64,000 nt of DNA, from assembly GCF_044324785.1 (NCBI RefSeq), contig NZ_CP172127.1; one strand, written 5' to 3'. Positions 9,370 to 64,000 of this stretch are shown one piece after another. Under the pieces are notes generated by a model. That model worked only from the letters and a program-made list of their open reading frames with translations. It searched no databases and was not told where the DNA came from. The stretch is from Escherichia coli. Lineage in GTDB: Bacteria; Pseudomonadota; Gammaproteobacteria; Enterobacterales; Enterobacteriaceae. A program made the position numbers and the translations under genes. Positions within the stretch are counted from its first letter, which is position 1, and each line of letters begins with the position of its first letter.

Positions 9370-9476
9370 TTTTTGTTGTGCCTGACGAAGTTGTGTTGAA
9401 GGCACTATAACACGATGCTAGTATTTGGCAATCAAGACGTTTAGATGTCTAAATAAAACAATAAGGACAACACAAC

Positions 9477-24495: not shown

Positions 24496-24662
24496 GGGGT
24501 ATAACCTGAAAATGAGTCCAATAGGGGGAAATCTCCACGGCGCTCACTTTACCAGTTGGTGAGAATTATCCGAAGCTGAAGTTTGTAAATTACTCCCACT
24601 GAATGCAACATTCACTCTATTTCAGAGAAATACCTACCAAATTTATAAATTAAACAAATGAT

Positions 24663-24695
24663 AAACCCATAATTATTTTCTGTAATTATGGGTTT
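24663..24695 (-). terminator. Perfect 13-bp inverted repeat hairpin between entF and fepE
   Basis: aaacccataatta / taattatgggttt with 7-nt loop, 16 bp downstream of the entF stop; flanks are AT-rich. Confidence 0.45.
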
Positions 24696-24710
24696 ATAGA
24701 TAATATAAAT

Positions 24711-46030: not shown

Positions 46031-46099
46031 AGGCTCATAATTTCTGGTGATTTTATGCCGCCAACTTTACTCGCCAGGCTCTGATTTTCCGGTGACAGG

Positions 46100-46121
46100 A
46101 AAATGACAAAATTGTCATTTT
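46100..46121. promoter_or_regulatory. CusR box in the divergent cusC / cusR promoter (aaaatgacaaaattgtcatttt)
   Basis: Perfect palindrome AAAATGACAA-NN-TTGTCATTTT, matching the known CusR binding site. Confidence 0.8.
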
Positions 46122-46186
46122 GCCAATAAGCGATTGCCATCTGATCCCGCTACTCTAGAATTGCCCGGGCAACATGCGGAGGAAAT

Positions 46187-46870
46187 ATGAAACTGTTGAT
46201 TGTCGAAGATGAAAAGAAAACCGGAGAATACTTGACCAAAGGGTTAACCGAAGCCGGTTTTGTGGTCGATTTGGCCGACAATGGGCTGAATGGCTACCAT
46301 CTGGCGATGACCGGTGATTATGACCTGATAATCCTCGATATTATGCTGCCGGACGTGAACGGCTGGGATATCGTGCGCATGTTGCGCTCCGCCAATAAAG
46401 GGATGCCGATTCTGTTGCTTACCGCGCTTGGCACCATTGAACATCGCGTCAAGGGGCTGGAGTTGGGGGCCGATGACTATCTGGTGAAGCCGTTCGCTTT
46501 TGCTGAACTGCTGGCGCGGGTGCGCACTCTCCTGCGGCGCGGGGCGGCGGTGATTATCGAAAGTCAGTTTCAGGTTGCCGATCTGATGGTCGATCTCGTC
46601 AGCCGCAAAGTCACCCGCAGCGGCACGCGCATCACTCTGACCAGTAAAGAATTTACTCTGCTGGAGTTTTTCCTTCGCCATCAGGGCGAAGTGCTGCCCC
46701 GCTCGCTTATCGCCTCGCAGGTATGGGACATGAATTTCGACAGCGACACTAACGCCATTGATGTGGCGGTGAAGCGGCTACGCGGCAAAATCGACAACGA
46801 CTTTGAGCCGAAGCTGATTCAAACCGTGCGCGGCGTGGGTTACATGCTTGAGGTGCCGGATGGTCAGTAA
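46187..46870 (+). CDS. cusR: Copper-responsive response regulator CusR (OmpR family), 227 aa
   Basis: Full ORF; receiver domain plus winged-helix domain; recognised. Confidence 0.96.
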
Positions 46871-48308
46871 GCCATTTCAGCGCCCGTTTTCGCTGGCAAC
46901 CCGCCTGACCTTTTTTATCAGCCTGGCCACCATCGCGGCGTTTTTCGCCTTTGCATGGATCATGATCCACTCAGTAAAAGTGCATTTTGCCGAGCAGGAT
47001 ATTAATGATTTAAAAGAGATTAGCGCCACACTCAAGCGCGTTCTTAATCATCCCGAAGAGACACAAGCCCGACGCTTAATGACGCTGGAAGATATCGTCA
47101 GTGGTTATTCCAACGTGTTGATTTCCCTGGCAGATAGCCACGGTAAAACGGTATATCACTCCCCCGGTGCGCCCGATATCCGCGAGTTTGCACGTGATGC
47201 CATACCCGATAAAGACGCGCGGGGCGGCGAGGTGTATCTCCTTTCCGGCCCGACAATGATGATGCCGGGCCACGGTCACGGGCATATGGAACACAGCAAC
47301 TGGCGGATGATTAACTTGCCGATTGGCCCGTTGGTGGACGGCAAACCGATTTATACGCTCTACATCGCGCTTTCGATCGATTTTCATCTTCATTACATAA
47401 ATGATTTGATGAATAAACTTATTATGACCGCATCGATCATCAGCATCCTGATCGTCTTTATCGTGCTATTGGCGGTACATAAAGGTCACGCGCCGATCCG
47501 CAGCGTCAGCCGTCAAATCCAGAATATCACCTCGAAAGATCTCGACGTTCGCCTTGACCCGCAGACCGTGCCGATTGAGCTGGAACAGTTGGTACTGTCG
47601 TTCAACCATATGATCGAGCGTATTGAGGATGTCTTTACCCGCCAGTCCAATTTCTCAGCGGATATCGCCCACGAAATTCGTACACCAATTACGAATCTCA
47701 TAACGCAAACGGAAATCGCCCTCAGCCAGTCGCGCAGCCAGAAGGAGCTGGAAGATGTGCTCTACTCTAATCTCGAAGAGCTGACGCGAATGGCGAAAAT
47801 GGTCAGCGATATGTTGTTTCTCGCCCAGGCCGATAACAACCAGTTAATCCCCGAAAAGAAAATGCTCAACCTGGCGGATGAAGTCGGCAAAGTGTTCGAT
47901 TTTTTCGAGGCGTTAGCGGAAGATCGCGGCGTGGAGTTGCGGTTTGTTGGTGACGAGTGTCAGGTTGCGGGCGATCCGCTGATGTTGCGTCGGGCGTTAA
48001 GCAACCTGCTTTCGAACGCCCTGCGTTATACGCCACCCGGAGAGGCAATTGTTGTGCGCTGCCAGACGGTCGATCACCAGGTGCAAGTTACCGTCGAAAA
48101 CCCCGGTACGCCCATTGCGCCCGAGCACTTACCGCGATTGTTTGACCGTTTCTATCGCGTTGACCCCTCCCGTCAGCGAAAAGGCGAAGGTAGCGGCATT
48201 GGTCTGGCGATAGTGAAATCGATAGTTGTCGCGCATAAAGGCACGGTTGCGGTAACGTCAGATGCGCGGGGGACAAGGTTTATGATCAAACTACCGGAGA
48301 AAGGTTAA
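46860..48308 (+). CDS. cusS: Copper/silver sensor histidine kinase CusS, about 482 aa
   Basis: ORF-track frame 46848..48308; ATG at 46860 ([10 protein letters not shown]...) overlaps the cusR stop; H-box [10 protein letters not shown]. Confidence 0.94.
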
Positions 48309-49051
48309 TTAGTTAGTTCAAACTCAAAGAGTGATGTATCGCCTTCTGTTATTATTTATCAATAAAACAGGGAAGACCTTATTGGTCGTCTGAAATCGAA
48401 GGTTATTCATTTTCGGATATTTACGAGATATTTAGATATGCAATTTAATCAAATTCGTGTTTCTACCAATTGTAGAGCACAATGCTATTACTAAATTTTC
48501 ATCACTATAAAAGAATCGGCTATAATATAAAGCGCAGTCAGGCATCATTAATCTCTATATTATTCACACAATCTATTTATCAAGTGAATTTGATAAATTC
48601 CTAATTTAAAATATTCACTATTAAGCCAGCGTCTAACGACGTTAAGATGGCAATGTGCAGATCATGTTATCAGGGTGGGGCGGTAGCGTATATTCCTTAT
48701 ACAAACCATCATTCATTTCAATAATATTTATTGAGTTATTTATTATTGTGAATAAAAAGACATTACAAATATTGGTTTAACTTTGCATATCAGGTGTTTT
48801 TTTGTTACTCGATGTAATATACGAGCCTGTCCTTAATAACATCGTGAACCCGTCAGTTGAGTTTGTGATTATTTTGTTGACTCAACAGCCCCCCGTTTCT
48901 CTGAAGTAAAATCCCGGACAAAATTCTCACATAACCATGACACTTTTCTGATATTCCCCGGTAACGCCTGAAGCCGGCCCGCTTATCTCATTACCCGACA
49001 TGTTGTACATGCAATATGTGCGGATTATTATTCATTTTCACGGAGGTTGCT
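48309..49051. other. AT-rich non-coding junction between the core genome (cusS) and the Rhs/vgrG accessory element
   Basis: About 740 bp with no convincing ORF and abrupt compositional change; K-12 gene order would place nfrB here. Confidence 0.6.
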
Positions 49052-50953
49052 ATGTCAACCGGATTACGTTTCACACTGGAAGTGGACGGCCTGCCACCGG
49101 ACGCTTTTGCGGTGGTCTCCTTTCATCTCACCCAGTCACTCTCTTCACTTTTTTCCCTAGACCTTTCTCTGGTCAGTCAGCAGGTTCTCTCCCTTGAATT
49201 TGCGCAGGTGCTGGACAAAATGGCCTACCTGACGGTATGGCAGGGCGATGACGTACAGCGCCGGGTGAAAGGCGTGGTGACCTGGTTTGAACTCGGGGAG
49301 AACGACAAAAACCAGATGCTGTACAGCATGAAGGTGCGCCCGCCGCTGTGGCGGGCAGGACTGCGTCAGAACTTCCGTATCTTCCAGAACGAGGACATCA
49401 GAAGCATCCTCGGCACCATACTGCAGGAAAACGACGTCACGGAGTGGAGCCCGCTGTTCAGCGAGCCGCATCCTTCCCGTGAGTTTTGTGTCCAGTACGG
49501 TGAAACCGATTACGACTTTCTCTGCCGGATGGCAGCGGAGGAAGGCATCTTCTTCTATGAGGAGCACGCGCAGAAAAGTACCGACCAGAGTCTGGTGCTG
49601 TGCGACACGGTCCGCTATCTGCCGGAGTCCTTTGAAATCCCCTGGAACCCGAACACCCGTACCGAGGTGAGCACCCTCTGCATCAGCCAGTTCCGCTACA
49701 GCGCACAAATCCGTCCTTCCTCCGTGGTGACCAAAGACTACACCTTTAAACGCCCCGGCTGGGCCGGGCGTTTTGACCAGGAAGGCCAGCATCAGGATTA
49801 CCAGCGCACACAGTATGAAGTGTATGACTGGCCGGGGCGTTTCAAGAGCGCCCACGGGCAGAACTTTGCCCGCTGGCAGATGGACGGCTGGCGAAACAAC
49901 GCAGAAACCGCGCGGGGAATGAGCCGCTCGCCGGAGATATGGCCGGGACGGCGAATTGTGCTGACGGAGCATCCGCAGGCGAACCTGAACCGGGAATGGC
50001 AGGTGGTGGCGAGCGAACTGCACGGCGAACAGCCGCAGGCGGTGCCGGGACGGCGGGGCGCGGGGACGGCGCTGGAGAACCAGTTTGTGGTAATCCCGGC
50101 AGACCGGACGTGGCGGCCACAGCCGAAGCCAAAGCCGTCAGTGGACGGTCCACAGAGCGCCGTCGTGACGGGGCCTGCGGGAGAGGAAATCTTCTGCGAC
50201 GAGCATGGCCGGGTGCGGGTGAAATTCAACTGGGACCGCTATAACCCGGCCAACCAGGACAGCTCGTGCTGGATACGGGTGGCGCAGGCGTGGGCGGGGC
50301 CGGGATTTGGCAACCTGGCGATACCGCGCGTGGGTCAGGAGGTCATTGTGGACTTCCTCAACGGCGACCCAGACCAGCCCATCATCATGGGCCGCACCTA
50401 TCACCAGGAAAACCGCACCCCCGGCAGCCTGCCGGGAACGAAGACGCAGATGACCATCCGCTCCAAAACATATATGGGCAGCGGGTTTAACGAGCTGAAG
50501 TTTGACGATGCAACAGGGAAAGAACAGGTCTACATCCACGCGCAGAAGAACATGGATACCGAGGTGCTCAACGACCGTACCACCACCGTAAAACACGATC
50601 ACCGCGAAACCGTAAAAAATGACCAGACGGTCACGATCCAGGAAGGTAACCGCCTTCTTACGGTGGCAAAAGGCCACAAAATCACAGGCGTACTAAAAGG
50701 GTCCTTATCTGAGGATGTCTTTCAGGACAGAGGCACGATTGCCGGTTCAGTGCATGTTGACGCTGTAAACAATGGTGGCGAAGGCGACGGTATACAGGCT
50801 TATACGGCGATTAAGCAAATTATGCTGGCCGTGGAGGAAAGCAAAATTGCGCTGACGCCGGATGGCATTCAGCTACAGGTCGGGGAATCGACGGTAATCA
50901 GGCTGTCGAAGGATGGCATCACCATCGTGGGCAGTTCTGTTTTCATCAACTGA
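49052..50953 (+). CDS. vgrG: Rhs-linked VgrG (type VI secretion spike protein), 633 aa
   Basis: ORF-track frame 49016..50953; start at MSTGLRFTLEVDGLPPDAFAVVSF with GGAGG ribosome-binding site; gp27/gp5-like VgrG sequence. Confidence 0.9.
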   Translation: MSTGLRFTLEVDGLPPDAFAVVSFHLTQSLSSLFSLDLSLVSQQVLSLEFAQVLDKMAYLTVWQGDDVQRRVKGVVTWFELGENDKNQMLYSMKVRPPLWRAGLRQNFRIFQNEDIRSILGTILQENDVTEWSPLFSEPHPSREFCVQYGETDYDFLCRMAAEEGIFFYEEHAQKSTDQSLVLCDTVRYLPESFEIPWNPNTRTEVSTLCISQFRYSAQIRPSSVVTKDYTFKRPGWAGRFDQEGQHQDYQRTQYEVYDWPGRFKSAHGQNFARWQMDGWRNNAETARGMSRSPEIWPGRRIVLTEHPQANLNREWQVVASELHGEQPQAVPGRRGAGTALENQFVVIPADRTWRPQPKPKPSVDGPQSAVVTGPAGEEIFCDEHGRVRVKFNWDRYNPANQDSSCWIRVAQAWAGPGFGNLAIPRVGQEVIVDFLNGDPDQPIIMGRTYHQENRTPGSLPGTKTQMTIRSKTYMGSGFNELKFDDATGKEQVYIHAQKNMDTEVLNDRTTTVKHDHRETVKNDQTVTIQEGNRLLTVAKGHKITGVLKGSLSEDVFQDRGTIAGSVHVDAVNNGGEGDGIQAYTAIKQIMLAVEESKIALTPDGIQLQVGESTVIRLSKDGITIVGSSVFIN

Positions 50954-50980
50954 TTCACTCAGATTAACAGGGAGTATTTT

Positions 50981-51442
50981 ATGCAGTTCACTTTTAATGA
51001 AGGTCATATTCAGCTGCCATCGCAATGGCAGGATCAGTCGATGCAGGTCCTGGTGTCCACAGATAACAGTGGCATCAACCTGGTCATTACCCGCGAACCC
51101 GTTCCACAGGGAACCCTGACACCAGAACTGTACCAGGAAACGCTGGCGCTGTACCAGGGCAAACTTGATGGGTACACCGAACATGCCTGCCGGGAAATCA
51201 CTCTGGCAGAGGCCCCGGCCTGGCTGCTGGATTATTCCTGGAACGGTCCGGAAGATGAAGGGAATCAGGGGCGGATTAGCCAGATAGCCGTATTCCAGCG
51301 GCGTGGAGATACGCTGCTGACCTTCACTTTCAGCACCTCCTTATCCCTGAAGAACAGTCAAAAGACGATGCTGCTGGAGGTGATAAAGAGCTTCACCCCG
51401 TTGCCACCGGAGAATGACATCCAAAAGGACCAGCCGCGCTGA
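50981..51442 (+). CDS. DUF1795-family (Eag-type) chaperone for a prePAAR effector, 153 aa
   Basis: Full ORF directly upstream of a prePAAR-Rhs gene; family call by gene context and size. Confidence 0.65.
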   Translation: MQFTFNEGHIQLPSQWQDQSMQVLVSTDNSGINLVITREPVPQGTLTPELYQETLALYQGKLDGYTEHACREITLAEAPAWLLDYSWNGPEDEGNQGRISQIAVFQRRGDTLLTFTFSTSLSLKNSQKTMLLEVIKSFTPLPPENDIQKDQPR

Positions 51443-51461
51443 CATAAACGAGGGATAACAC

Positions 51462-54400
51462 ATGAGTGAAGGACCAGGCGGGCCACAGGGAGCGACCGCA
51501 GGCGGTACGCTGGCAATGCGAATGCTGTCACAGCAGGCGATGGTCGCCAGCCAGATGAAACGGGCAGCCAACGACAAAGCCATTGCACAGATGTTGGCAT
51601 CAAAAAAGTCTGGCCCCCCCGCCGCCAGGCTGGGCGATGAAATTCAGCACAAGAGTTTTTTGGGGGCGCTGGCAGGGGCCGTGCTGGGGGCGATAGTGAC
51701 CATCGCAGAAGGTTGCCTGATTATCGCCGCCTGTGCCACCGGCCCTTATGCGCTGGTTCTGGTGCCTGCGCTGATGTATGCCAGCTATAAGGCGAGTGAT
51801 TATGTGGAGGAGAAACAGAACCAGCTTGAATCCTGGATAAACAGCTTTTGTGACAAGGACGGGGCCATCAATACTGGTTCTAAAAATGTAAACATTAACG
51901 GAAAGCCCGCTGCCAGGGCCGCCGTCACACTTCCCCCTCCTCCCCTGACTGAAGCAATACCCTCTCCACCACAGGGGGAACCTTCATGGGGGGATATTGC
52001 CACTGACCTGCTTGAATCGGCAGCGGAAAAAGCAGTGCCACTGGCGAAGGCCTGGGGGAACGCTGTTATCACCCTGACGGACAGCAATGCCAGTTTTATG
52101 GATCGCTTATGTGCAGGCACATCGCTTCTGTTTCCCTACGGCCCGGTATTAATGGAGTTTGCCACCATGGTGGGCGGGCGTGGCGAAATCAAAAAAGACG
52201 TGGATTTCCCGGAAGCCGGTGAAGACACGGCGCTCTGCGACAAGGAGACTAAACCGCCGAGGATAGCCCAGGGCAGCAGCAACGTCTTCATCAACAATCA
52301 GCCTGCCGCGCGCAAGGGCGACAAACTGGAGTGCAGCGCGGCAATCGTGGAAGGTTCGCCGGACGTCTTTATTGGGGGTGAGCAGGTCACCTATCTGGAT
52401 ATCCAGCCGGAGTTCCCGCCGTGGCAGAGAATGATCCTGGGGGGAATAACGATAGCCAGCTATCTTCTGCCGCCAGCGGGACTGCTGGGAAAAATGAAGA
52501 ATCTGGCGAGACTCGGCAAACTGGGAAACCTGCTGGGGAAAAGCGGGAAGCTGCTGGGCGCAAAACTCGGCGCATTGCTGAGCAGAACAAAAAATGCCCT
52601 GAAAAATACGTATAACGTCCTGAAAAAGTTTATCAAAGATCCGGTTGACCCGGTAACCGGCGCGTACTGCGACGAACGTACCGACTTCACCCTGGGCCAG
52701 ACCCTCCCCCTCTCCTTCACCCGTTTCCACAGTTCTGTACTGCCACTGCATGGCCTGACGGGCGTGGGCTGGAGCGACTCCTGGAGCGAATACGCCTGGG
52801 TGCGTGAACAGGGAAACCGGGTGGATATCATCAGCCAGGGAGCCACGCTGTACTTTGCCTTCGACGGAGACAGTGATACGGCGGTTAACCCGTATCACGC
52901 CCAGTATATCCTGCGCCGCCGCGACGATTACCTGGAGCTGTTCGACCGTGATGCCCTGAGCAGCCGCTTCTTTTATGACGCCTTTCCGGGAATGCGCCTG
53001 CGCCACCAGGTGACCGGCGATACCAATGATGACCGCCTGGCACACAGCCCCGGTGACCGGATGTACATGCTGGGCGGAATGAGTGACACCGCCAGCAACC
53101 GCATCACGTTTGAGCGCGACAGTCAGTACCGGATCACGGGTGTCAGTCACACCGACGGGATCCGGCTTAAACTGACGTACCACGCCAGCGGCTACCTGAA
53201 AGCCATTCACCGCACGGATAACGGCATACAGACGCTGGCGACCTACGAACAGGACGAACGGGGACGGCTGACAGAAGCGGATGCGCGGCTGGACTACCAC
53301 CTGTTTTATGAGTACGACGATGCGGACCGGATCATCCGCTGGTCCGATAACGACCAGACGTGGAGCCGTTTCACCTACGATGCACAGGGCCGGTGCGTGA
53401 CCGTCACCGGGGCGGAAGGCTATTACAACGCCACGCTGGACTATGGTGACGGCTGCACTTCCGTGACGGACGGCAAGGGCATTCACCGTTATTACTATGA
53501 TCCTGACGGCAATATCCTGCGGGAAGACGCGCCGGACGGCAGTACCACCACGTATGAATGGGATGAATTCCATCACCTGCTGGCCCGCCACTCCCCTGCC
53601 GGACGGGTGGAGAAATTTGAATACAACGCCGTACACGGTCAGTTAAGCCGTTACACGGCGGCAGACGGCGCGGTGTGGCAGTACCGCTATGATGAGCGCG
53701 GCCTGCTCAGCAACATCACCGACCCTGCCGGGCAGACGTGGACACAGCAGTGTGATGAACGCGGCCTGCCGGTAAGTCTGGTGTCGCCACAGGGCGAAGA
53801 GACCCGGCTGGCGTACACGCCACAGGGGCTGCTGTCGGGGATATTCCGCCAGGATGAACGGCGTCTGGGCATAGAGTACGACCACCACAACCGGCCGGAA
53901 ACACTCACCGACGTGATGGGCCGTGAACACCACACCGAATACAGCGGTCACGACCTGCCGGTGAAGATGCGCGGCCCCGGCGGTCAGTCAGTGCGGTTAC
54001 AGTGGCAGCAGCACCATAAACTGAGTGGCCTTGAGCGGGCAGGAACCGGCGCGGAAGGATTCCGCTACGACCGCCACGGCAACCTGCTGGCGTACACGGA
54101 CGGTAACGGCGTTGTCTGGACAATGGAATACGGCCCGTTCGATTTGCCGGTGGCGCGAACGGACGGTGAAGGCCACCGCTGGCAGTACCGCTACGATAAA
54201 GACACGCTGCAACTGACAGAAGTCATCAATCCGCAGGGTGAGTCATACCGTTATATTCTCGACAACTGTGGCCGGGTGACGGAAGAGCGTGACTGGGGCG
54301 GCGTGGTCTGGCGTTACCGCTATGACGCCGATGGCCTGTGTACCGCCAGGGTTAACGGCCTGGAGGAAACTATCCTCTACAGCCGGGACGCCGCAGGCCG

Positions 54401-56324
54401 CCTGGCAGAAGTCATCACCCCGGAAGGCAAAACGCAGTATGCGTATGACAAATCCGGCAGGCTGACGGGTATCTTCAGCCCGGACGGCACATCACAGCGC
54501 ACCGGCTACGACGAACGCGGGCGGGTGAATGTCACCACTCAGGGCAGACGGGCCATTGAGTACCACCACCCCGATGAACACACCGTTATCCGCTGTATCC
54601 TGCCACCGGAAGATGAACGCGACAGACACCCCGGTGAATCCCTGCTGAAAACCACCTACCGCTACAACGCCGCCGGAGAACTGACGGAGGTTATCCTGCC
54701 GGGGGATGAGACGCTGACGTTCAGCCGTGATGAGGCAGGACGTGAAGTGCTCCGGCACAGTAACCGGGGTTTTGCCTGTGAACAGGGCTGGAATGCAGCC
54801 GGTCAGCTTACCAGCCAGCGCGCCGGATTTTTCCCGGCGGAAGCCACATGGGGCGGACTGCTCCCCTCACTGGTGCGGGAGTACCGTTACGACAGCGCGG
54901 GCAATGTGTCGGCTGTCACCAGCCGGGAAGACTACGGACGGGAAACACGGCGGGAGTACCGGCTGGACCGGAACGGCCAGGTCACAACGGTGACAGCCTC
55001 AGGCACCGGGCTGGGCTATGGCGAAGGCGACGAGACTTATGGCTATGACAGCTGCGGCTACCTGAAGGCGCAGTCTGCGGGCAGGCACCGGATAAGTGAA
55101 GAGACTGACCAGTATGCCGGAGGCCACCGGCTGAAACAGGCCGGAAACACGCAGTATGACTATGACGCCGCAGGCCGGATGGTCAGCCGCACCAGACACC
55201 GTGACGGCTACCGCCCGGAAACAGAGCGGTTCCGGTGGGACAGCCGGGACCAGCTGACCGGGTATTGCAGCGCACAGGGGGAGCAGTGGGAATACCGCCA
55301 CGACGCCAGCGGCAGGCGGACGGAAAAACGCTGCGACCGGAAGAAAATCCGTTTTACGTACCTGTGGGACGGCGACAATATTGCGGAAATCCGGGAATAC
55401 CGCGATGATAAACTGTACAGCGTACGGCACCTGGTGTTTAACGGCTTTGAGCTGGTAAGCCAGCAGTGCAGCCGGGTACGGCAGGCGCATCCGTCCGTGG
55501 CCCCGCAGTGGGTGACGCGAACGAATTATGCGGTGAGCGACCTGACAGGCCGCCCGCTGATGCTCTTTAACAGTGAAGGTAAAACCGTCTGGCGGCCGGG
55601 ACAGACCAGCCTGTGGGGGCTGGCACTCAGCCTGCCCGCAGACACCGGCTACCCGGACCCGCGCGGGGAACTGGACCCGGAAGCCCCCCCCGGCCTGCTG
55701 TATGCGGGACAGTGGCAGGATACGGAATCGGGGCTGTGCTATAACCGGTTCCGGTATTACGAGCCGGAAACCGGAATGTACCTGGTGAGTGATCCGCTGG
55801 GGTTGCAGGGAGGTGAGCAGACTTACCGGTATGTGCCTAATCCTTGTGGGTATGTTGATCCGCTGGGGCTGGCAAAAACCAGTATTATAAAATCTTCTAC
55901 AGGCAAAATCCCACAAGGGTTAACAAAAAGCGAATTTGAGATTTTTTCAAAAAAATTAAAGGATGTATTAGCCCGAGAGGGAATCTCGACAGAGAATGTG
56001 TTTGTACATGGCAGTAGAGCCAGAGGAGATGCTGTATCAGGTGTTTCAGATATTGATATAAAAGTGATCCTTAGTGATAAAGATTTTGGTGCCTTTGCAG
56101 CAAGACGTATTGCTGAGTCCTCAGGAAGGACTCGAAATTTAATCAGGAAGGCCGTTGCTAAAAATCAAAAAATAAATTCAAGAGGAATTTCTAAAACTTT
56201 TGAATCTACTGTATGGGATGAGGTTTTCACTACCTTACCAAAAGGTGAGTTTTCAAGCATTCAAGTTTCTGTTATGACCAAAACTTCACCATTCAACACT
56301 AATCCGAGTATTATATTACCATGA
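51462..56324 (+). CDS. prePAAR/PAAR-domain Rhs effector with C-terminal polymorphic toxin domain, 1620 aa
   Basis: N-terminal AARLGDEIQH prePAAR motif and TM helices, split PAAR region, YD/Rhs repeats, PxxxxDPxGL-type demarcation (PNPCGYVDPLGL), then an AT-rich 150-aa C-terminal extension. Confidence 0.92.
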   Translation: MSEGPGGPQGATAGGTLAMRMLSQQAMVASQMKRAANDKAIAQMLASKKSGPPAARLGDEIQHKSFLGALAGAVLGAIVTIAEGCLIIAACATGPYALVLVPALMYASYKASDYVEEKQNQLESWINSFCDKDGAINTGSKNVNINGKPAARAAVTLPPPPLTEAIPSPPQGEPSWGDIATDLLESAAEKAVPLAKAWGNAVITLTDSNASFMDRLCAGTSLLFPYGPVLMEFATMVGGRGEIKKDVDFPEAGEDTALCDKETKPPRIAQGSSNVFINNQPAARKGDKLECSAAIVEGSPDVFIGGEQVTYLDIQPEFPPWQRMILGGITIASYLLPPAGLLGKMKNLARLGKLGNLLGKSGKLLGAKLGALLSRTKNALKNTYNVLKKFIKDPVDPVTGAYCDERTDFTLGQTLPLSFTRFHSSVLPLHGLTGVGWSDSWSEYAWVREQGNRVDIISQGATLYFAFDGDSDTAVNPYHAQYILRRRDDYLELFDRDALSSRFFYDAFPGMRLRHQVTGDTNDDRLAHSPGDRMYMLGGMSDTASNRITFERDSQYRITGVSHTDGIRLKLTYHASGYLKAIHRTDNGIQTLATYEQDERGRLTEADARLDYHLFYEYDDADRIIRWSDNDQTWSRFTYDAQGRCVTVTGAEGYYNATLDYGDGCTSVTDGKGIHRYYYDPDGNILREDAPDGSTTTYEWDEFHHLLARHSPAGRVEKFEYNAVHGQLSRYTAADGAVWQYRYDERGLLSNITDPAGQTWTQQCDERGLPVSLVSPQGEETRLAYTPQGLLSGIFRQDERRLGIEYDHHNRPETLTDVMGREHHTEYSGHDLPVKMRGPGGQSVRLQWQQHHKLSGLERAGTGAEGFRYDRHGNLLAYTDGNGVVWTMEYGPFDLPVARTDGEGHRWQYRYDKDTLQLTEVINPQGESYRYILDNCGRVTEERDWGGVVWRYRYDADGLCTARVNGLEETILYSRDAAGRLAEVITPEGKTQYAYDKSGRLTGIFSPDGTSQRTGYDERGRVNVTTQGRRAIEYHHPDEHTVIRCILPPEDERDRHPGESLLKTTYRYNAAGELTEVILPGDETLTFSRDEAGREVLRHSNRGFACEQGWNAAGQLTSQRAGFFPAEATWGGLLPSLVREYRYDSAGNVSAVTSREDYGRETRREYRLDRNGQVTTVTASGTGLGYGEGDETYGYDSCGYLKAQSAGRHRISEETDQYAGGHRLKQAGNTQYDYDAAGRMVSRTRHRDGYRPETERFRWDSRDQLTGYCSAQGEQWEYRHDASGRRTEKRCDRKKIRFTYLWDGDNIAEIREYRDDKLYSVRHLVFNGFELVSQQCSRVRQAHPSVAPQWVTRTNYAVSDLTGRPLMLFNSEGKTVWRPGQTSLWGLALSLPADTGYPDPRGELDPEAPPGLLYAGQWQDTESGLCYNRFRYYEPETGMYLVSDPLGLQGGEQTYRYVPNPCGYVDPLGLAKTSIIKSSTGKIPQGLTKSEFEIFSKKLKDVLAREGISTENVFVHGSRARGDAVSGVSDIDIKVILSDKDFGAFAARRIAESSGRTRNLIRKAVAKNQKINSRGISKTFESTVWDEVFTTLPKGEFSSIQVSVMTKTSPFNTNPSIILP
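55872..56321 (+). other. Rhs C-terminal toxin domain, candidate nucleotidyltransferase fold
   Basis: HGSRARGDAVSGVSDIDIKV matches the hG[GS]-x(9-13)-DhDh nucleotidyltransferase signature by eye; sharp drop in GC at the DPLGL boundary. Confidence 0.55.
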
Positions 56325-56671
56325 AGAAAAAAGATATTAGATTTGCAATATCCATTAACTCCAACTTAAGTAAGATAGAATTAATGGAAAAAATTAAAAA
56401 TATAATCCCAGGGCTTATTGAAATAACTTCCAGTGCATTAAGAGAAGAAAAAAACATGGTAGTTATTGAAGAAAATGATCTTTATGACCCTATAAAAGCA
56501 GAGGGAGCTGATGGATGGATGTATTATAAATTCATATTATCCATATTCCCATTAAAGGGAGTGGAAACAACATTAGAATATCAACGGGAATTATCTTTTC
56601 TTTTCTTAAAGAAAATAAAAGATGCGGGCCTGTTGGGTGAACTTATATGCGAGGATGATTTTCATGACTGA
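56321..56671 (+). CDS. Putative cognate immunity protein for the Rhs toxin, 116 aa
   Basis: ATG overlaps the rhs stop (ATGA); AT-rich small ORF immediately downstream of the toxin domain. Confidence 0.7.
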   Translation: MKKKDIRFAISINSNLSKIELMEKIKNIIPGLIEITSSALREEKNMVVIEENDLYDPIKAEGADGWMYYKFILSIFPLKGVETTLEYQRELSFLFLKKIKDAGLLGELICEDDFHD

Positions 56672-56719
56672 TGACCTCTACATATATCCTCAGTTCGTGG
56701 CTGGTATTACATGATCTGA

Positions 56720-56880
56720 CAGGGAAAGATCGTGGCGAAATCAAAAAAGACGTGGATTTCCCGGAAGCCGGTGAGGACACGGCGCTCTGCGACAAGGAGA
56801 ACAAACCACCGAGGATAGCCCAGGGCAGCAGCAACGTCTTCATCAACAATCAGCCTGCCGCACGCAAAGGGGACAAACTG
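56720..56880 (+). repeat. Displaced copy of an rhs PAAR-region fragment (matches about 52180-52328), flanked by 'cagggaaagat' 11-mers
   Basis: About 150 bp near-identical to the main rhs gene; left flank carries the same 11-mer that begins the H-repeat element. Confidence 0.8.
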
Positions 56881-58171
56881 CAGGGAAAGATCACGTAACG
56901 CTGCTTTTTTGTACTAAATAATTCGCATTTTATGTTTAAAAATTGAGATATTCCTCATTACCTAAAGCTGTTTTTTATTGCTTATACATGATCAAATACT
57001 CCTTACATAATTAAGGAGAACAAAATGGAACTTAAAAAATTGATGGAACATATTTCTGTTATCCCCGATTACAGACAAGCATGGAAAGTAGAACATAAAT
57101 TGTCAGATATTCTACTGTTGACTATTTGCGCCGTCATTTGTGGTGCAGAAGGCTGGGAAGATATAGAGGATTTTGGTGAAACACATCTCGATTTTTTGAA
57201 GCAATATGGTGATTTTGAAAATGGTATTCCTGTCCACGATACCATTGCCAGAGTTGTATCCTGTATCAGTCCTGCAAAATTTCACGAGTGCTTTATTAAC
57301 TGGATGCGAGATTGCCATACTTCAGATGATAAAGACGTTATTGCAATCGATGGAAAAACACTCCGGCATTCTTATGACAAGAGTCGCCGCAGGGGAGCGA
57401 TTCATGTCATTAGTGCGTTCTCAACAATGCACAGTCTGGTCATCGGACAGATCAGGACGGATGAGAAATCTAATGAGATTACAGCTATCCCAGAACTTCT
57501 TAACATGCTGGATATTAAAGGAAAAATCATCACAACTGATGCGATGGGTTGCCAGAAAGATATTGCAGAGAAGATACAAAAACAGGGCGGTGATTATTTA
57601 TTCGCTGTAAAAGGAAATCAGGGGCGGCTTAATAAAGCCTTTGAGGAAAAATTCCCACTGAAAGAATTAAATAATCCAGAGCATGATAGTTACGCAATTA
57701 GTGAAAAGAGTCACGGCAGAGAAGAAATCCGACTTCATATTGTTTGCGATGTCCCTGATGAACTTATTGATTTCACGTTTGAATGGAAAGGGCTGAAGAA
57801 ATTATGCATAGCAGTCTCCTTTCGCTCAATAATAGCAGAGCAAAAGAAAGAGCCAGAAATGACGGTCAGATATTATATCAGTTCTGCTGATTTAAACACA
57901 GAAAAGTTCGCCACAGCAATCCGAAACCACTGGCACGTGGAGAATAAGCTGCACTGGCGTCTGGATGTGGTAATGAATGAAGACGACTGCAAAATAAGAA
58001 GAGGAAATGCAGCAGAATTATTTTCAGGGATACGGCACATCGCTATTAATATTTTGACGAATGATAAGGTATTCAAGGCAGGGTTAAGACGTAAGATACG
58101 AAAAGCAGCTATGGACAGAAACTACATGGCGTCAGTCCTTGCGGGGAGCGGGCTTTCGTAATCTTTCCCTG
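56881..58171 (+). mobile_element. H-repeat (ISAs1-family) insertion sequence, complete copy, about 1.29 kb
   Basis: Terminal inverted repeats cagggaaagatcacg (left) and cgtaatctttccctg (right); contains an intact transposase ORF. Confidence 0.85.
57025..58161 (+). CDS. ISAs1-family (H-repeat-associated) DDE transposase, 378 aa
   Basis: Full ORF with AAGGAG ribosome-binding site; [50 protein letters not shown]... typical of E. coli H-repeat ORF-H proteins. Confidence 0.88.
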
Positions 58172-58174
58172 GAC

Positions 58175-58396
58175 ATGACGATTATTGTTCGTTCAAATCC
58201 GAGTAAAGCCGCTATTCTTGAAGAATTTTTACATGGTACACAAGAGAAACTAGGAATAGCTGAAAAATTAGGACGTTATGGACTAGGGAGTGCAGAAACG
58301 CACGTTAAGGATTTCATGATAAGACACAAAAAAATGCTTGGGTTATCTGATGAGGATGTAGCAATACTCAAAATATTGAAAGACAAGGGGTTGTGA
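58175..58396 (+). CDS. Hypothetical small protein, 73 aa (possible toxin C-terminal remnant or immunity protein)
   Basis: ATG 3 nt after the IS right end; ORF-track frame 58139..58396 begins inside the IS. Confidence 0.35.
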   Translation: MTIIVRSNPSKAAILEEFLHGTQEKLGIAEKLGRYGLGSAETHVKDFMIRHKKMLGLSDEDVAILKILKDKGL

Positions 58397-58683
58397 TGAA
58401 TATAATTCTGCCGATAAAAGATATATTTATTATTGCGGGAAACATAGTTTTTAGCGTTTTATACAATGAACATATTGAGTTCCCATGCCGCTGCCAATTA
58501 CTATCTTCAAATTCTGAAGTTATGCAAGAGTTATATATTGAAAAAGAGTTATTTATTAAACGCACTACAGAAAATGATTGTCGTGCTTTAGTGTTAAGAG
58601 GAACATTGGAATACTTATTTGATGAAATTATTGCTGGCGATTGTGCATTGGCCTTATTACAAAAAGAAATAAAAAAAGATTAA
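58393..58683 (+). CDS. Hypothetical protein, 96 aa, candidate orphan immunity protein
   Basis: ATGA overlap with the preceding ORF; AT-rich; position within the Rhs orphan array. Confidence 0.45.
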   Translation: MMNIILPIKDIFIIAGNIVFSVLYNEHIEFPCRCQLLSSNSEVMQELYIEKELFIKRTTENDCRALVLRGTLEYLFDEIIAGDCALALLQKEIKKD

Positions 58684-58895
58684 TCCAATATGTAGAACTG
58701 GACAATACCCATCTTTTAACAATGAACTTCGTAATTTTTATCTTAGAAATAATGCTACATTATATGAGGTATATCATGAAGTAATTCATGCCAAGCAATT
58801 TGCGAAAATATTTCTATCGGAGGTGCTGATGCACCATCTAATATGAGACTTATGGATATAATGACACATACAACTCATCATAAATATTACAGGCC

Positions 58896-59264
58896 TTGGG
58901 AATGATAAATAAAATAGTGAAAAAAATGTTGGTTTCATATAGCCCTAAGAAACCGGAGTCTAGGGGCGGGGATTTTGTTATTCCGTTGTTTTTTAATGAG
59001 AAAGTTTCTTTTTTTAGCATAAAAAGTGGCAAGCCAGTGCGATATGGTCTTATGGTATTTACAGGGAAAGTAATTACCATAGATGATATTCTTAGTAAAG
59101 TTCGTTTTCCTGATGTTATGAATGAGCAAAATATTCAACCGTTAATTGACTTTATTAATAACATTAGCGATTTTAAAATAGGGGATGTTATTGAAATTGA
59201 TGATAATGGTAAATTGAAAGTTGTGCCAAAATCAGCAGGACACCCTGTGAGTAAATTGCCATGA
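58896..59264 (+). CDS. Hypothetical protein, about 120 aa, candidate orphan immunity protein
   Basis: AT-rich ORF (ATG at 58902); its stop lies about 20 bp before orphan rhs homology begins, in the same frame. Confidence 0.45.
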   Translation: MGMINKIVKKMLVSYSPKKPESRGGDFVIPLFFNEKVSFFSIKSGKPVRYGLMVFTGKVITIDDILSKVRFPDVMNEQNIQPLIDFINNISDFKIGDVIEIDDNGKLKVVPKSAGHPVSKLP

Positions 59265-59284
59265 TACTTAAGGGGCCTGATTTT

Positions 59285-62051
59285 CTGTTTTTGCCAGTGG
59301 GACGAATACCATCACCTGCTGGCGAGGCTGTCTCCGGCAGGACGGCTGGAAAAGTTTGACTATCATCTGACACTCGGTCAGTTAAGCCGTTACACGGCGG
59401 CAGACGGCGCGGAGTGGCAGTACCGCTATGATGAGCGCGGCCTGCTCAGCAACATCACCGACCCTGCCGGGCAGACGTGGACACAGCAGTGCGATGAACG
59501 CGGCCTGCCGGTGAGTCTGGTGTCGCCACAGGGCGAAGAGACCCGGCTGGCGTACACCGCTCAGGGGCTGCTGTCGGGGATATTCCGCCAGGATGAACGG
59601 CGTCTGGGCATAGAGTACGACCACCACAACCGGCCGGAAACACTCACCGACGTGATGGGCCGTGAACACCACACCGAATACAGCGGTCACGACCTGCCGG
59701 TGAAGATGCGCGGCCCCGGCGGTCAGTCAGTGCGCTTACAGTGGCAGCAGCACCATAAACTGAGCGGCATTGAACGTGCTGGAACCGGCGCGGAAGGATT
59801 TCGCTATGACCGCCACGGCAACCTGCTGGCCTGGACGGACGGCAACGGTGTTGACTGGACAATGGAATACGGCCCGTTTGATTTGCCGGTGGCGCGAACG
59901 GACGGTGAAGGCCACCGCTGGCAGTACCGCTACGATAAAGACACGCTGCAACTGACAGAAGTCATCAATCCGCAGGGCGAGTCATACCGTTATATTCTCG
60001 ACAACTGTGGGCGGGTGACGGAAGAGCATGACTGGGGCGGCGTGGTCTGGCGTTACCGCTATGACGCCGATGGTCTGTGTACCGCCAGGGTTAACGGCCT
60101 GGAGGAAACCATCCTCTACAGCCGGGACGCCGCAGGCCGCCTGGCAGAAGTCATCACCCCGGAAGGGAAAACGCAGTATGCGTATGACAAATCCGGCAGG
60201 CTGACGGGTATCTTCAGCCCGGACGGCACATCACAGCGCACCGGCTACGACGAACGCGGGCGGGTGAATGTCACCACTCAGGGCCGACGGGCCATTGAAT
60301 ACCACCACCCCGATGAACACACCGTCATCCGCTGTATCCTGCCACCGGAAGATGAACGCGACAGACACCCCGGTGAATCCCTGCTGAAAACCACCTACCG
60401 CTACAACGCCGCCGGAGAACTGACGGAGGTTATCCTGCCGGGGGATGAGACGCTGACGTTCAGCCGTGATGAGGCAGGACGTGAAGTGCTCCGGCACAGT
60501 AACCGGGGTTTTGCCTGTGAACAGGGCTGGAATGCAGCCGGTCAGCTTACCAGCCAGCGCGCCGGATTTTTCCCGGCGGAAGCCACATGGGGCGGACTGC
60601 TCCCCTCACTGGTGCGGGAGTACCGTTACGACAGCGCGGGCAATGTGTCGGCTGTCACCAGCCGGGAAGACTACGGACGGGAAACACGGCGGGAGTACCG
60701 GCTGGACCGGAACGGCCAGGTCACAACGGTGACAGCCTCAGGCACCGGGCTGGGCTATGGCGAAGGCGACGAGACTTATGGCTATGACAGCTGCGGCTAC
60801 CTGAAGGCGCAGTCTGCGGGCAGGCACCGGATAAGTGAAGAGACTGACCAGTATGCCGGAGGCCACCGGCTGAAACAGGCCGGAAACACGCAGTATGACT
60901 ATGACGCCGCAGGCCGGATGGTCAGCCGCACCAGACACCGTGACGGCTACCGCCCGGAAACAGAGCGGTTCCGGTGGGACAGCCGGGACCAGCTGACCGG
61001 GTATTGCAGCGCACAGGGGGAGCAGTGGGAATACCGCCACGACGCCAGCGGCAGGCGGACGGAAAAACGCTGCGACCGGAAGAAAATCCGTTTTACGTAC
61101 CTGTGGGACGGCGACAATATTGCGGAAATCCGGGAATACCGCGATGATAAACTGTACAGCGTACGGCACCTGGTGTTTAACGGCTTTGAGCTGGTAAGCC
61201 AGCAGTGCAGCCGGGTACGGCAGGCGCATCCGTCCGTGGCCCCGCAGTGGGTGACGCGAACGAATTATGCGGTGAGCGACCTGACAGGCCGCCCGCTGAT
61301 GCTCTTTAACAGTGAAGGTAAAACCGTCTGGCGGCCGGGACAGACCAGCCTGTGGGGGCTGGCACTCAGCCTGCCCGCAGACACCGACTACCCGGACCCG
61401 CGCGGGGAGCTGGACCCGGAAGCCGACCCCGGCCTGCTGTATGCAGGACAGTGGCAGGATACGGAATCAGGGCTGTGCTATAACCGGTTCCGGTACTACG
61501 AGCCGGAAACCGGAATGTACCTGGTGAGTGATCCGCTGGGGTTGCAGGGGGGTGAGCAGACTTACCGGTATGTGCCGAATCCTTTAAGATATAAAGATTT
61601 CTATGGGCTTAGTAAGAGTTCAATAATAACGAGAGGAAAGAATGCTGGTCATGGCTATGCAGCCAGCGTTACACCTGGAGGCAAAGGTACGGTGTTGGCT
61701 GGTCACGGAGGATCAAAATTTGGCGATAAAATGATTATACCAGAAGGCGTATCGATAACGATGCCGAGAGATGGTATTAAAATATCAGATATGACTGGAA
61801 AATTACTGGAATCTGGTAATGTGGATGATATAATTAAAGCTGCAAGTAATAATCCTCGTGTAGCTAGCGATCTTGAAGGTTGGGTTACTTATTTGCCCGG
61901 CACTGAAATCCCTGATTATATTTTAAAACCACCCACCAATCTTAACATACTGGAAAATTCAGTAACGGTGAACACTTCAACTTATTTATCTCAAATGGTA
62001 AATGCTGGTCAAGGTAATGTAATCTGGGCTGCATGCACCGAATTTTTTTAA
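59285..62051 (+). CDS. Orphan rhs C-terminal cassette (Rhs core repeats plus alternative toxin domain); no canonical ATG, first in-frame start is GTG at 59511
   Basis: Near-identical to the main rhs from about aa 700 onward, then diverges at a degenerate PNPLRYKDFYGL motif into a distinct roughly 147-aa AT-rich C-terminus. Confidence 0.8.
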
Positions 62052-62065
62052 CGCGGGGTAATCGT

Positions 62066-62548
62066 ATGTATTTTAAAGATGATACTGACTATACATATTT
62101 CCTTCCTAATGAATATTTTTTACACGGGGTGAAAAATGTGGGCTGGATAGACAGAGAACACCCCTTCACAAAAGGGATTAGTGACGCTGAATTTATTGAA
62201 AAGTTAAAAGCAATAATTCTAACAGAGAATGAAGCAACTTGTTTTTCAGTTAATAAAATAAGAGGATTTCACAAATGTAATTTTTGCAATAGTGAAATGA
62301 TAACAATAACCGATGGAAGAAAAAAAGGATACCTTGGCATGAGTGAAATATGGATTCCATCCATCCACCATAATGAGTATTACGCGTTTCCTTCATTAAT
62401 TTTCCATTATATAACATCTCACATGTATAGACCACCAGAGGACTTTATTGTATCTGTTTTAAACTTGAATTTAAGCGAGAGTTTTTGCGCTCAAAACATA
62501 TATGACAATAAAATTAAGGAATTAAAAATAGACTTCTGGTTTCGTTAA
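62066..62548 (+). CDS. Putative immunity protein for the orphan Rhs toxin, 160 aa
   Basis: ORF-track frame 62033..62548; ATG at 62066 just after the orphan toxin stop; AT-rich, Cys/His-containing. Confidence 0.6.
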   Translation: MYFKDDTDYTYFLPNEYFLHGVKNVGWIDREHPFTKGISDAEFIEKLKAIILTENEATCFSVNKIRGFHKCNFCNSEMITITDGRKKGYLGMSEIWIPSIHHNEYYAFPSLIFHYITSHMYRPPEDFIVSVLNLNLSESFCAQNIYDNKIKELKIDFWFR

Positions 62549-62559
62549 AGCTGGTAATT

Positions 62560-62917
62560 TAACTTATCGGGAATACCGCTATGATGGCAGTTTCAGACGG
62601 ACGGAGAAATGCTGTCAGCAAAAAGACTTCCGCTTCGCGTATCTGTGGGGCATGGGGATAATTTATCTTCATCAATTGATATATTGATTAATGGCAAGGA
62701 GGCCATTGAAATTCCGTAAGGCCAACTTGATATGACGCCTGGCACACAGCCCCGGTGACCGGATGTATATGCTGGGCGGGATGAGCGACACCGCCAGCAA
62801 CCGCATCACGTTTGAGCGCGACAGCCAGTACCGGATCACGGGTGTCAGTCACACCGACGGGATCCGGCTTAAACTGACGTACCACGCCAGCGGCTACCTG
62901 AAAGCCATTCACCGCAG
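62560..62917 (+). pseudogene. Degenerate rhs core fragments (one matching about 55270-55380, one matching 53038-53214 of the main rhs)
   Basis: Two short stretches of rhs homology, the first degenerate, the second truncated by the H-repeat insertion at 62915. Confidence 0.7.
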
Positions 62918-64000
62918 GGAAAGATCACGTAACGCTGCTTTTTTGTACTAAGCAATTCGCATTTTATGTTCAGTATTTGAGATACTCCTTATAACACAAA
63001 CCTGTTTTTCATAGCTTATATATGTAGGAAAAGATCACGTAACGCTCCTTTTTTGTACTAAATAATTCGCATTTTATGTTTAAAAATTGAGATATTCCTC
63101 ATTACCTAAAGCTGTTTTTTATTGCTTACACATGATCAAATACTCCTTACATAATTAAGGATAACAAAATGTAACTTAAAAAATTGATGGAACATATTTC
63201 TATTATCCCCGATTACAGACAAGCCTGGAAAGTGGAACATAAATTATCGGATATTCTACTGTTGACTATTTGTGCCGTTATTTCGGGTGCAGAAGGTTGG
63301 GAAGATATAGAGGATTTTGGGGAAACACATCTCGATTTTTTAAAACAATATGGTGATTTTGAAAATGGTATTCCTGTTCACGATACCATTGCCAGAGTTG
63401 TATCCTGTATCAGCCCTGCAAAATTTCACGAGTGCTTTATTAACTGGATGCGAGATTGCCATACTTCAGATGATAAAGACGTCATCGCAATTGATGGAAA
63501 AACACTCCGGCATTCTTATGGCAAGAGTCGCCGCAGGGGAGCGATTCATGTCATTAGTGCGTTCTCAACAATGCACAGTCTGGTCATCGGACAGATCAGG
63601 ACGGATGAGAAATCCAATGAAATTACAGCTATCCCTGAACTTCTTAACATGCTGGATATTAAAGGAAAAATCATCACAACTGATGCAATGGGTTGCCAGA
63701 AAGATATTGCAGAGAAGATACAAAAACAGGGCGGTGATTATTTATTCGCTGTAAAAGGAAATCAGGGGCGGCTTAATAAAGCCTTTGAGGAAAAATTTCC
63801 ACTGAAAGAATTAAATAATCCAGAGCATGACAGTTACGCCATTAGTGAAAAGAGTCACGACAGAGAAGAAATCCGTCTTCATATTGTTTGCGATGTCCCT
63901 GATGAACTTATTGATTTCACGTTTGAATGGAAAGGACTGAAGAAATTATGCGTGGCAGTCTCCTTTCGGTCAATAATAGCAGAACAAAAGAAAGAGCCAG
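62915..64000 (+). mobile_element. Second H-repeat (ISAs1-family) element, partial (runs off the window); 5' end carries a degenerate about 110-bp duplicate of the IS left end
   Basis: cagggaaagatcacgtaacgctgc... repeated at 62915 and again (ggaaaagatcacgtaacgctcc...) at 63027; the rest is near-identical to the first copy. Confidence 0.8.
63197..64000 (+). CDS. ISAs1-family transposase, second copy, partial at window end; ancestral start codon is followed by TAA (ATG TAA) so translation could only begin at the Met7-equivalent
   Basis: aaaatgtaacttaaaaaattgatggaacat versus aaaatggaacttaaaaaattgatggaacat in copy 1; downstream frame intact to the window end. Confidence 0.6.

Follow-up and report, generated by a model that had tools for sequence, protein, structure and literature searches.

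Position 4 of the Escherichia coli Rhs elements, the site between nfrB and cusS, was described by Jackson et al. (2009, BMC Genomics 10:584; PMC2935791, Table 3 and Fig. 5) as the sole clade IV rhs locus of the species, with displaced C-terminal tips lying downstream. In the enterohaemorrhagic E. coli (EHEC) strain EDL933, the version of this locus is vgrG1 (z0707)-eagR (z0706)-rhsF, and the three VgrG proteins of that strain were found to be at least 90% identical and similar to those of type VI secretion system 2 (T6SS-2) (PMC7216683). Effectors of this architecture, the class I prePAAR effectors, were defined together with their dependence on Eag proteins by Ahmad et al. (2020, eLife 9:e62816; PMC7773334). 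We analyzed a stretch of 64,000 nucleotides of an E. coli chromosome (contig NZ_CP172127.1, assembly GCF_044324785.1), hereafter the window, in which cusS is followed by a vgrG gene, an eag chaperone gene and a prePAAR-Rhs effector gene (Table 1).

Judged from its sequence and gene order, the region corresponds to position 4 of the E. coli Rhs elements and is orthologous to vgrG1-eagR-rhsF of EHEC O157:H7. The island is already known and common and the arrangement of its cassette is ordinary; the only unusual feature is a rare nucleotidyltransferase-type toxin tip. Domain content, synteny, population frequency, repeats and sequence constraint were established in the analysis. By homology, the genes most likely form an auxiliary cargo cassette of a type VI secretion system (T6SS), for which loading, firing and autoproteolysis are predicted.

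The cusS-nfrB locus and its relatives

The window is a segment of E. coli-type chromosome whose orientation is reversed with respect to K-12. Matching the order and lengths of its open reading frames (ORFs) to the annotated strain N3 gave the succession uspG/ahpCF, ent-fep cluster, pheP, cusCFBA and cusRS. N3 is the closest complete genome, with 99.0% identity on a 24 kb core; among the 5426 complete E. coli genomes, those that come after it reach about 97.5%. Since only N3 reaches 99% on this core, the window is taken to come from a sparsely sampled E. coli lineage. In the N3 annotation the genes rhs (contig 23663-28072), tssA, vasL, ybdL and dkgB are frameshifted; these are probably assembly errors and not real pseudogenes, because the window and the draft genomes encode an intact Rhs protein of 1620 residues and other loci carrying the exact TssF allele of N3 encode an intact TssA of 471 residues.

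The synteny in N3 is that of the window: cusS, vgrG, DUF1795, rhs, immunity gene, orphan rhs, ISEc1 and nfrB. In O157 Sakai the order is cusS (ECs0608), vgrG (ECs0607), DUF1795 (ECs0606), rhs (ECs0605), a small ORF, an orphan rhs, ISEc1 and nfrB. An exact-protein look-up found the Rhs protein of the window in 8 NCBI draft assemblies; among the contigs reaching far enough, cusS was located upstream in six and nfrB or nfrA downstream in four. Two of these assemblies, GCA_044153325.1 and GCA_043159325.1, both fragmented, match the window over the island with 100% identity.

The locus shares with position 4 of Jackson et al. the same chromosomal site, dissociated tips downstream and a core that is conserved between strains and joined to differing tips. 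The cusS gene adjoins the island in the window, the nfrB flank was seen in N3 and in the contigs with identical Rhs, and a dissociated tip, the orphan fragment at 59298-62051, lies downstream from the full-length gene. The attached nucleotidyltransferase-type tip of the window is, in contrast, rare. With the EHEC O157:H7 island the correspondence is gene for gene, with the same flanks and with ISEc1 ahead of nfrB; the window differs from it by another toxin tip and immunity gene, an extra ISAs1 copy, an extra orphan module and about 150 extra bases in the spacer upstream from vgrG.

The first-pass annotation of the window, made from the sequence alone, had noted an abrupt change to an AT-rich spacer after cusS, had stated that nfrB follows cusS in K-12 and had concluded that the module is an accessory insertion. 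The change in composition was confirmed: the GC content falls from 0.52-0.55 in cusS to 0.33-0.36 across 48250-48999, with the cusS stop codon at 48308, and rises to 0.55-0.66 beyond. In island-less E. coli the homology ends at window position 48295, 13 nt ahead of this stop codon and within the last codons of cusS. The K-12 gene order given there was also correct, the gap between cusS and nfrB in MG1655 being 149 bp long with nothing between the two genes and no island.

The comparison of the cusS junction across E. coli genomes, proposed at that first stage, found the cusS-spacer-vgrG junction (in one place, with at least 80% coverage) in 2432 of the 5426 complete genomes. The locus is therefore accessory, as claimed, being present in these genomes and lacking in MG1655; insertion, on the other hand, is not the only possible history, because the relics found in other strains are evidence of loss as well. 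No direct repeats and no integrase were found at the island boundary, and the cusS site looks like an old, recombining and sometimes decaying chromosomal site rather than a recent mobile insertion.

The spacer between cusS and vgrG is conserved with O157 Sakai except for the extra bases, which lie at roughly 48338-48490. An Rfam scan of 46000-64000, which included these bases, gave no match.

The three delivery genes

The module was initially placed at 48309-56324. Its genes were found to be intact and correctly located, but the right end was set too early: it cuts the immunity gene at 56321-56671 and the rest of the island. The extent of the island past 56324 and its identity as a published, widespread Rhs locus were both missing from that first description. 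The identities given to vgrG, to the DUF1795 chaperone gene and to the prePAAR-Rhs gene agree with the profile searches (TIGR03361, PF08786 and PF25799). The three ORFs have no internal stop codons, and their lengths are the same or nearly the same as in O157 Sakai.

The vgrG ORF spans 49016-50953. Its start is most likely the ATG at 49052, because a GGAGG sequence lies 7 nt upstream and the resulting protein has 633 residues, as in the orthologues. VgrG scored 628 bits against TIGR03361 (E = 1e-188, cut-off 186) and 443 bits against TIGR01646 (cut-off 122), so that the gp27-like and gp5-like core of the T6SS spike VgrG/TssI family is above the trusted cut-off; the match to the PDB structure of VgrG1, 4mtk, had an E-value of 9e-95. 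The conserved gp27/gp5 core occupies residues 1-539 and is followed by a cargo-specific C-terminal region, residues 540-633, of which residues 561-633 match PDB entry 3WIT ("Putative Vgr protein", 82 residues; E = 7e-37). This entry appears to be the C-terminal domain of the O157 VgrG of Uchida et al. 2013 (cited in PMC7216683), a link between entry and paper that we infer. The divergent C-terminal region would give the spike its specificity for the Rhs cargo.

Compared with Sakai, VgrG shows 96-97% amino-acid identity and its gene a ratio of non-synonymous to synonymous substitution rates (dN/dS) of 0.06-0.11. In GCA_005386025.1, one of the assemblies encoding the identical Rhs protein, vgrG was called as two ORFs (300 and 270 residues; contig 7638-9492); this assembly differs from the window in the GC-rich middle of vgrG between the two ORFs (window 49950-50139). 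The split could be due either to a real disruption or to an assembly artefact.

The eag product matched PF08786 over residues 7-137 (E = 7.3e-28), the signature of the DUF1795/DcrB fold, and is 99.3% identical in amino-acid sequence to Sakai ECs0606, with a dN/dS of 0.07. The gene adjoins that of an effector with prePAAR and a transmembrane domain (TMD), ending 19 nt ahead of the rhs start. For an orthologous arrangement of E. coli, binding and stabilization of the effector TMD by Eag, and a need for Eag in export, were reported by Ma et al. 2017b, as summarized in PMC6730261. In the window, EagR would likewise shield the N-terminal transmembrane helices of Rhs in the cytoplasm of the producer.

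The Rhs protein contains the prePAAR motif AARLGDEIQH at residues 54-63 (nt 51621-51650; PF25799, E = 7.6e-5), N-terminal to the TMD. Kyte-Doolittle windows above 1.5 were found only at residues 63-106, where the signal is strong, and at residues 324-342, where it is marginal and already past PAAR; by hydropathy, Rhs has thus a single TMD region N-terminal to PAAR. The PAAR domain is in two pieces, residues 261-310 (PF05488, E = 2.9e-10) and residues 130-153 (E = 0.013). It was called split and divergent because the NCBIfam PAAR model reached 42 bits, under its cut-off of 124. Together, prePAAR and PAAR would cap the trimeric VgrG encoded just upstream. An alternative start at M44, which would bring prePAAR nearer to the N-terminus, was rejected: a GAGGG Shine-Dalgarno sequence precedes the annotated ATG, and only four nucleotides of the leader are different in Sakai.

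The Rhs shell consists of DUF6531, YD repeats (TIGR01643, nine stretches) and the Rhs-associated core (TIGR03696, 67.7 bits against a cut-off of 32.5). The cleavage motif PCGYVDPLGL is located at residues 1461-1470, with DPLGL at nt 55857-55871, and is followed by the variable tip. The rhs core has a dN/dS of 0.20 and 94% amino-acid identity to Sakai, whereas the tip is unrelated (14% amino-acid identity). By analogy with described Rhs effectors, the C-terminal toxin would be freed from the shell by autoproteolysis at DPLGL and would act in the cytoplasm of the target cell.

The effector resembles RhsA of Pseudomonas protegens, paired with EagR1, and Rhs1 of Salmonella, paired with SciW, in its AARxxDxxxH motif, in the one TMD region before PAAR and in the Rhs cage, and in both of these systems, as in the window, the gene for the DUF1795 chaperone is located immediately upstream. 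It differs from them in that prePAAR stands at residues 54-63, behind a leader of 53 residues, in that PAAR is split by about 100 residues, and in the weak extra hydrophobic stretch at residues 324-342.

Which secretion system could serve the cassette

No tss or hcp gene was found in the remaining 48 kb of the window, the core uspG-ahp-ent-fep-cus region, in which ORF lengths and order match those of annotated N3; the earlier statement that T6SS structural genes are absent from the window was therefore correct. The first-pass annotation had proposed that the module is either serviced by a T6SS encoded elsewhere or an orphaned island. This was the right way to put the question, which the window cannot decide, the source genome being seen only as these 64 kb.

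The cassette is very probably serviced by a distant T6SS-2, encoded at aspV in the closest relative. Four lines of evidence favour this reading: the T6SS-2 cluster of N3, the identity of the VgrG cores, the low dN/dS values and a relic found in a T6SS-deleted strain. In N3 the cluster lies between yafV and aspV, about 365 kb from cusS, and is formed by hcp, vgrG, rhs, tssB, C, E, F, G, tagH, tssJ, K, L, H, vasI, tssA, tssM, vasL and hcp. The VgrG of the window is 91% identical to the VgrG of this cluster over residues 1-539 and divergent after them, a sequence pattern expected for a paralogous spike that would fit the same baseplate and carry a different cargo. Firing of the loaded spike would then fall to a T6SS-2 (i2) machine whose genes lie at another chromosomal site.

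The same VgrG comparison bears on the possibility that some T6SS besides the T6SS-2 at aspV services the cassette, for instance T6SS-1 or a plasmid-borne system. Three types of T6SS exist in E. coli, plasmid-borne T6SS-2 regions have been described (PMC10711316), and the window is the only part of the source genome that was seen. We nevertheless consider servicing by such a system very improbable, given the 91% identity of the gp27/gp5 core to the VgrG of the aspV cluster, the description of the EDL933 orthologue as T6SS-2-like (PMC7216683) and the observation that, in E. coli, Rhs effectors are tied to T6SS-2 only (PMC10711316).

Genes tssA-tssM of T6SS-2 were found in 2538 of the 5426 complete genomes and the cusS-spacer-vgrG junction in 2432, figures that are compatible with coupling of the two loci. 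In strain Ec-042-T5-MAC, the T6SS-2 core at aspV is deleted, leaving an rhs-tssM junction, and the cusS locus is a relic composed of a 5' stub of vgrG, an orphan metallopeptidase-type tip and ISEc1. Decay of the auxiliary island appears to have gone hand in hand with that of the core in this strain.

If, instead, the cassette were orphaned, the compatible T6SS core would have been lost or never present, and the genes would persist through nothing but drift, or be retained for the immunity genes or for a T6SS-independent role of Rhs. Deletions of the T6SS-2 core are documented in E. coli lineages (PMC10711316), Ec-042-T5-MAC being the example seen here; fragments of rhs and vgrG persist in K-12-type strains, which have no T6SS, one of them being the VgrG/Pvc8-family fragment of an engineered laboratory strain; and the window contains no core gene. 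The orphan state is nonetheless unlikely, since the three delivery genes are intact, of full length and under low dN/dS (0.06-0.20 over vgrG, eag and the core of rhs, against O157 Sakai), the core cluster is present in N3, the nearest complete genome, and the cassette of the one T6SS-deleted genome has decayed to a relic and is not intact.

Several observations weigh against servicing by T6SS-2, some of them also on the side of the orphan state. The figures 2432 and 2538 are separate totals that were not cross-tabulated, and similar totals do not prove overlap. The relic of Ec-042-T5-MAC is a single example, an anecdote. Look-ups of the TssF and TssB alleles of N3, limited to the longest contigs, returned only assemblies other than those matching the window, these alleles being too widespread. 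In N3 itself, tssA and vasL are annotated as frameshifted, and among the assemblies with identical Rhs one, GCA_005386025.1, has vgrG called as two ORFs. The loss of T6SS-2 from E. coli lineages (PMC10711316) applies here as well, and dN/dS measures past constraint and not present function. Finally, scans of the spacer upstream from vgrG gave no identifiable expression signal: six sigma-70 promoter-like sites were counted where 3.2 +/- 1.7 were expected, which is not above chance, and no terminator was found.

Toxin tip, immunity gene and the rest of the island

The tip that follows the cleavage motif gave profile matches only to the generic NTP_transf_2/Polbeta families, over about 45 residues (NTP_transf_2, E = 1e-5). 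It contains the active-site signature hG[GS]-x(9-13)-Dh[DE]h, in the form VHGSRARGDAVSGVSDIDI, and the tip residues G47, S48, R49, D60 and D62 are invariant in 26 members of the family. At the candidate position of a third catalytic carboxylate, family members have either Q or D (IQVSV, IDFSI), and the position is not conserved. The AlphaFold (AF2) model of the tip is confident (pLDDT 93.7) and has the overall fold of the minimal nucleotidyltransferases (MNT); a Foldseek search with this model found no close neighbour in the PDB, the best E-value being 0.027. The similarity to CD-NTase and PDC-S09 in PADLOC is weak (best E = 3e-6) and comes from the shared nucleotidyltransferase core; it was not accepted as evidence that the toxin has a role in a defence system.

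An exhaustive HMMER search among 1.84 billion representatives placed the tip in a family of 42 clusters, in which the domain is C-terminal in the full-length matches and the scaffolds that bear it include Rhs, CdiA-like and HINT-containing proteins. The MNT/MntA antitoxins of HEPN-MNT pairs and the aminoglycoside ANT enzymes have a related domain, but that of the window is a delivered C-terminal tip with its own immunity protein. Compared with the minimal nucleotidyltransferases, it has an additional 50 or so residues without counterpart there, among them a conserved PF.xGP C-terminus, and its third acidic residue is not conserved in the family.

The gene overlapping the rhs stop codon encodes a protein of 116 residues for which no Pfam, NCBIfam or PADLOC family was found. 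An orphan nucleotidyltransferase tip of Pectobacterium is 66% identical to the tip of the window and is followed, with the same overlap, by an ORF of 118 residues whose product is 43% identical to the 116-residue protein. This matching ORF, co-inherited with the toxin in Pectobacterium, supports the assignment of the gene in the window as a putative immunity gene; its product would protect the producer and its kin.

Among the 5426 complete E. coli genomes, this tip is attached to rhs in one only, that of N3 (100% identity). In another 138 complete genomes, among them those of O121:H19 and of several clinical lineages, a 3' remnant of the toxin is kept together with an intact immunity gene, in a span equivalent to window positions 56107-56700. 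In the one example looked at, O121 RM8352 (contig 9001-9594), remnant and immunity gene follow a different Rhs tip at the cusS-nfrB locus. This distribution points to a widespread orphan immunity against a now-rare toxin.

Our best guess for the chemistry of the toxin is nucleotidyl transfer to an essential target. The nucleotidyltransferase toxins listed by Zhang et al. 2012 are of the RelA/SpoT type only. No characterized nucleotidyltransferase-type T6SS, Rhs or CdiA toxin was found in the literature, which is weak evidence, many subscription papers lying beyond the coverage of the search. We tentatively raise the possibility, without favouring it, that the payload is an undescribed class of interbacterial toxin, formed by an MNT-like nucleotidyltransferase domain of about 150 residues and a dedicated immunity protein of about 116 residues.

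The island continues past position 64000; at least 7.7 kb of it lie outside the limit of 56324 and contain, besides ISAs1 copies and scraps of rhs, an orphan rhs tip and the gene partnered with it (Table 1). The first scrap, derived from the PAAR region, directly abuts the left end of ISAs1 copy 1, and the second, from the early core, ends about 100 nt ahead of copy 2; the two insertion sequence (IS) copies are 96% identical. Scraps so close to the left end of each ISAs1 copy suggest that rearrangement of rhs either accompanied the arrival of the IS elements or was brought about by them. In N3 and in the contigs encoding the identical Rhs protein, nfrB is found about 200 bp past the last ISAs1/ISEc1 copy.

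The small AT-rich ORFs are probably leftover immunity genes or tip remnants of earlier displacements; those of 96 and 122 residues gave no family match. The segment 59298-61584 repeats rhs 53559-55845 over 2.29 kb with 97.4% identity, after which the tip differs, and provides a substrate for tip swapping by homologous recombination in the C-terminal displacement model. The Stv-like orphan tip, which has a GHG...AAC pattern, is annotated in N3 as a "putative adhesin". The downstream orphan rhs, the spare immunity genes and the ISAs1 copies would thus be a record of earlier tip swaps.

The orphan tip and its immunity-like partner stand without any delivery domain, a feature compatible with the proposal that Rhs-immunity pairs act mainly inside the producer as modules resembling toxin-antitoxin systems. 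Behaviour of this kind, similar to type II toxin-antitoxin systems, is reported for Salmonella rhs elements in PMC7043789. For the locus in the window such a main role is extremely unlikely, since the full-length gene has retained prePAAR, its TMD region and PAAR and is accompanied by a VgrG and an Eag chaperone of its own, all of them under constraint and none with a role in an intracellular toxin-antitoxin module. The intracellular reading is not exclusive of delivery of the Rhs toxin by T6SS-2.

Table 1. Features of the island and its left flank in the window
Feature	Position	Strand	Evidence and remarks
cusS, left flank of island	46860..48308	+	482 aa; CusS/HAMP/HisKA/HATPase Pfam matches in identical-lineage contigs
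AT-rich spacer upstream of vgrG	48309..49051	+	743 bp, GC about 0.33; presumed promoter/regulatory region
vgrG, T6SS spike, 633 aa	49052..50953	+	TIGR03361; PDB VgrG1 4mtk; intact
eag, EagR-type chaperone of DcrB/DUF1795 family, 153 aa	50981..51442	+	PF08786
rhs, class I prePAAR-PAAR-Rhs effector, 1620 aa	51462..56324	+	PF25799, PF05488, PF20148, TIGR01643, TIGR03696, PF03527
C-terminal toxin domain, MNT-like (DNA polymerase beta superfamily) nucleotidyltransferase fold	55872..56321	+	Rhs residues 1471-1620
Putative cognate immunity gene, 116 aa	56321..56671	+	Start overlaps rhs stop (ATGA), usual immunity-gene position
rhs PAAR-region scrap, copy of 52179-52328	56731..56880	+	95.3% identity over 150 nt; partial PAAR protein in N3 annotation
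ISAs1-family element (H-repeat), copy 1	56879..58171	+	Transposase gene 57025-58161; NF033564 E 5e-125
Small AT-rich ORFs, 85, 96 and 122 aa	58139..59264	+	N3 annotates a partial zincin-like metallopeptidase toxin fragment there
Orphan (dissociated) rhs 3' fragment with different, Stv-like tip	59298..62051	+	YD repeats, Rhs core, PF21527 E 1.7e-12
171-aa ORF partnering orphan tip, DUF7919, putative immunity gene	62033..62548	+	Overlaps orphan rhs end; precomputed Pfam PF25535 on identical-position gene in identical-Rhs contigs
Second rhs scrap (early core), copy of 53029-53218	62732..62920	+	96.8% identity over 190 nt
Second ISAs1/ISEc1 copy, cut by window end	63023..64000	+	Repeat comparison with copy 1

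The cassette in itself adds little to what is known, the locus having been mapped since 2009, being found in close to half of the complete genomes of E. coli and having an orthologue studied in EHEC and Shiga toxin-producing E. coli. It provides a clean, intact example for the genotyping of strain competition, in which the tip and the orphan immunity genes predict who can kill whom. The payload is the one lead worth following: it is a tractable candidate for a new toxic activity, because of its high-confidence MNT-like model, its conserved GSR...DxD site, its co-inherited immunity gene and the widespread orphan immunity genes. If it does represent a new class, the tip would kill by modifying an essential protein, RNA or metabolite through nucleotidylylation, AMPylation being one example. 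This mechanism of killing would be distinct from that of the RelA/SpoT-type (p)ppApp synthetase toxins.

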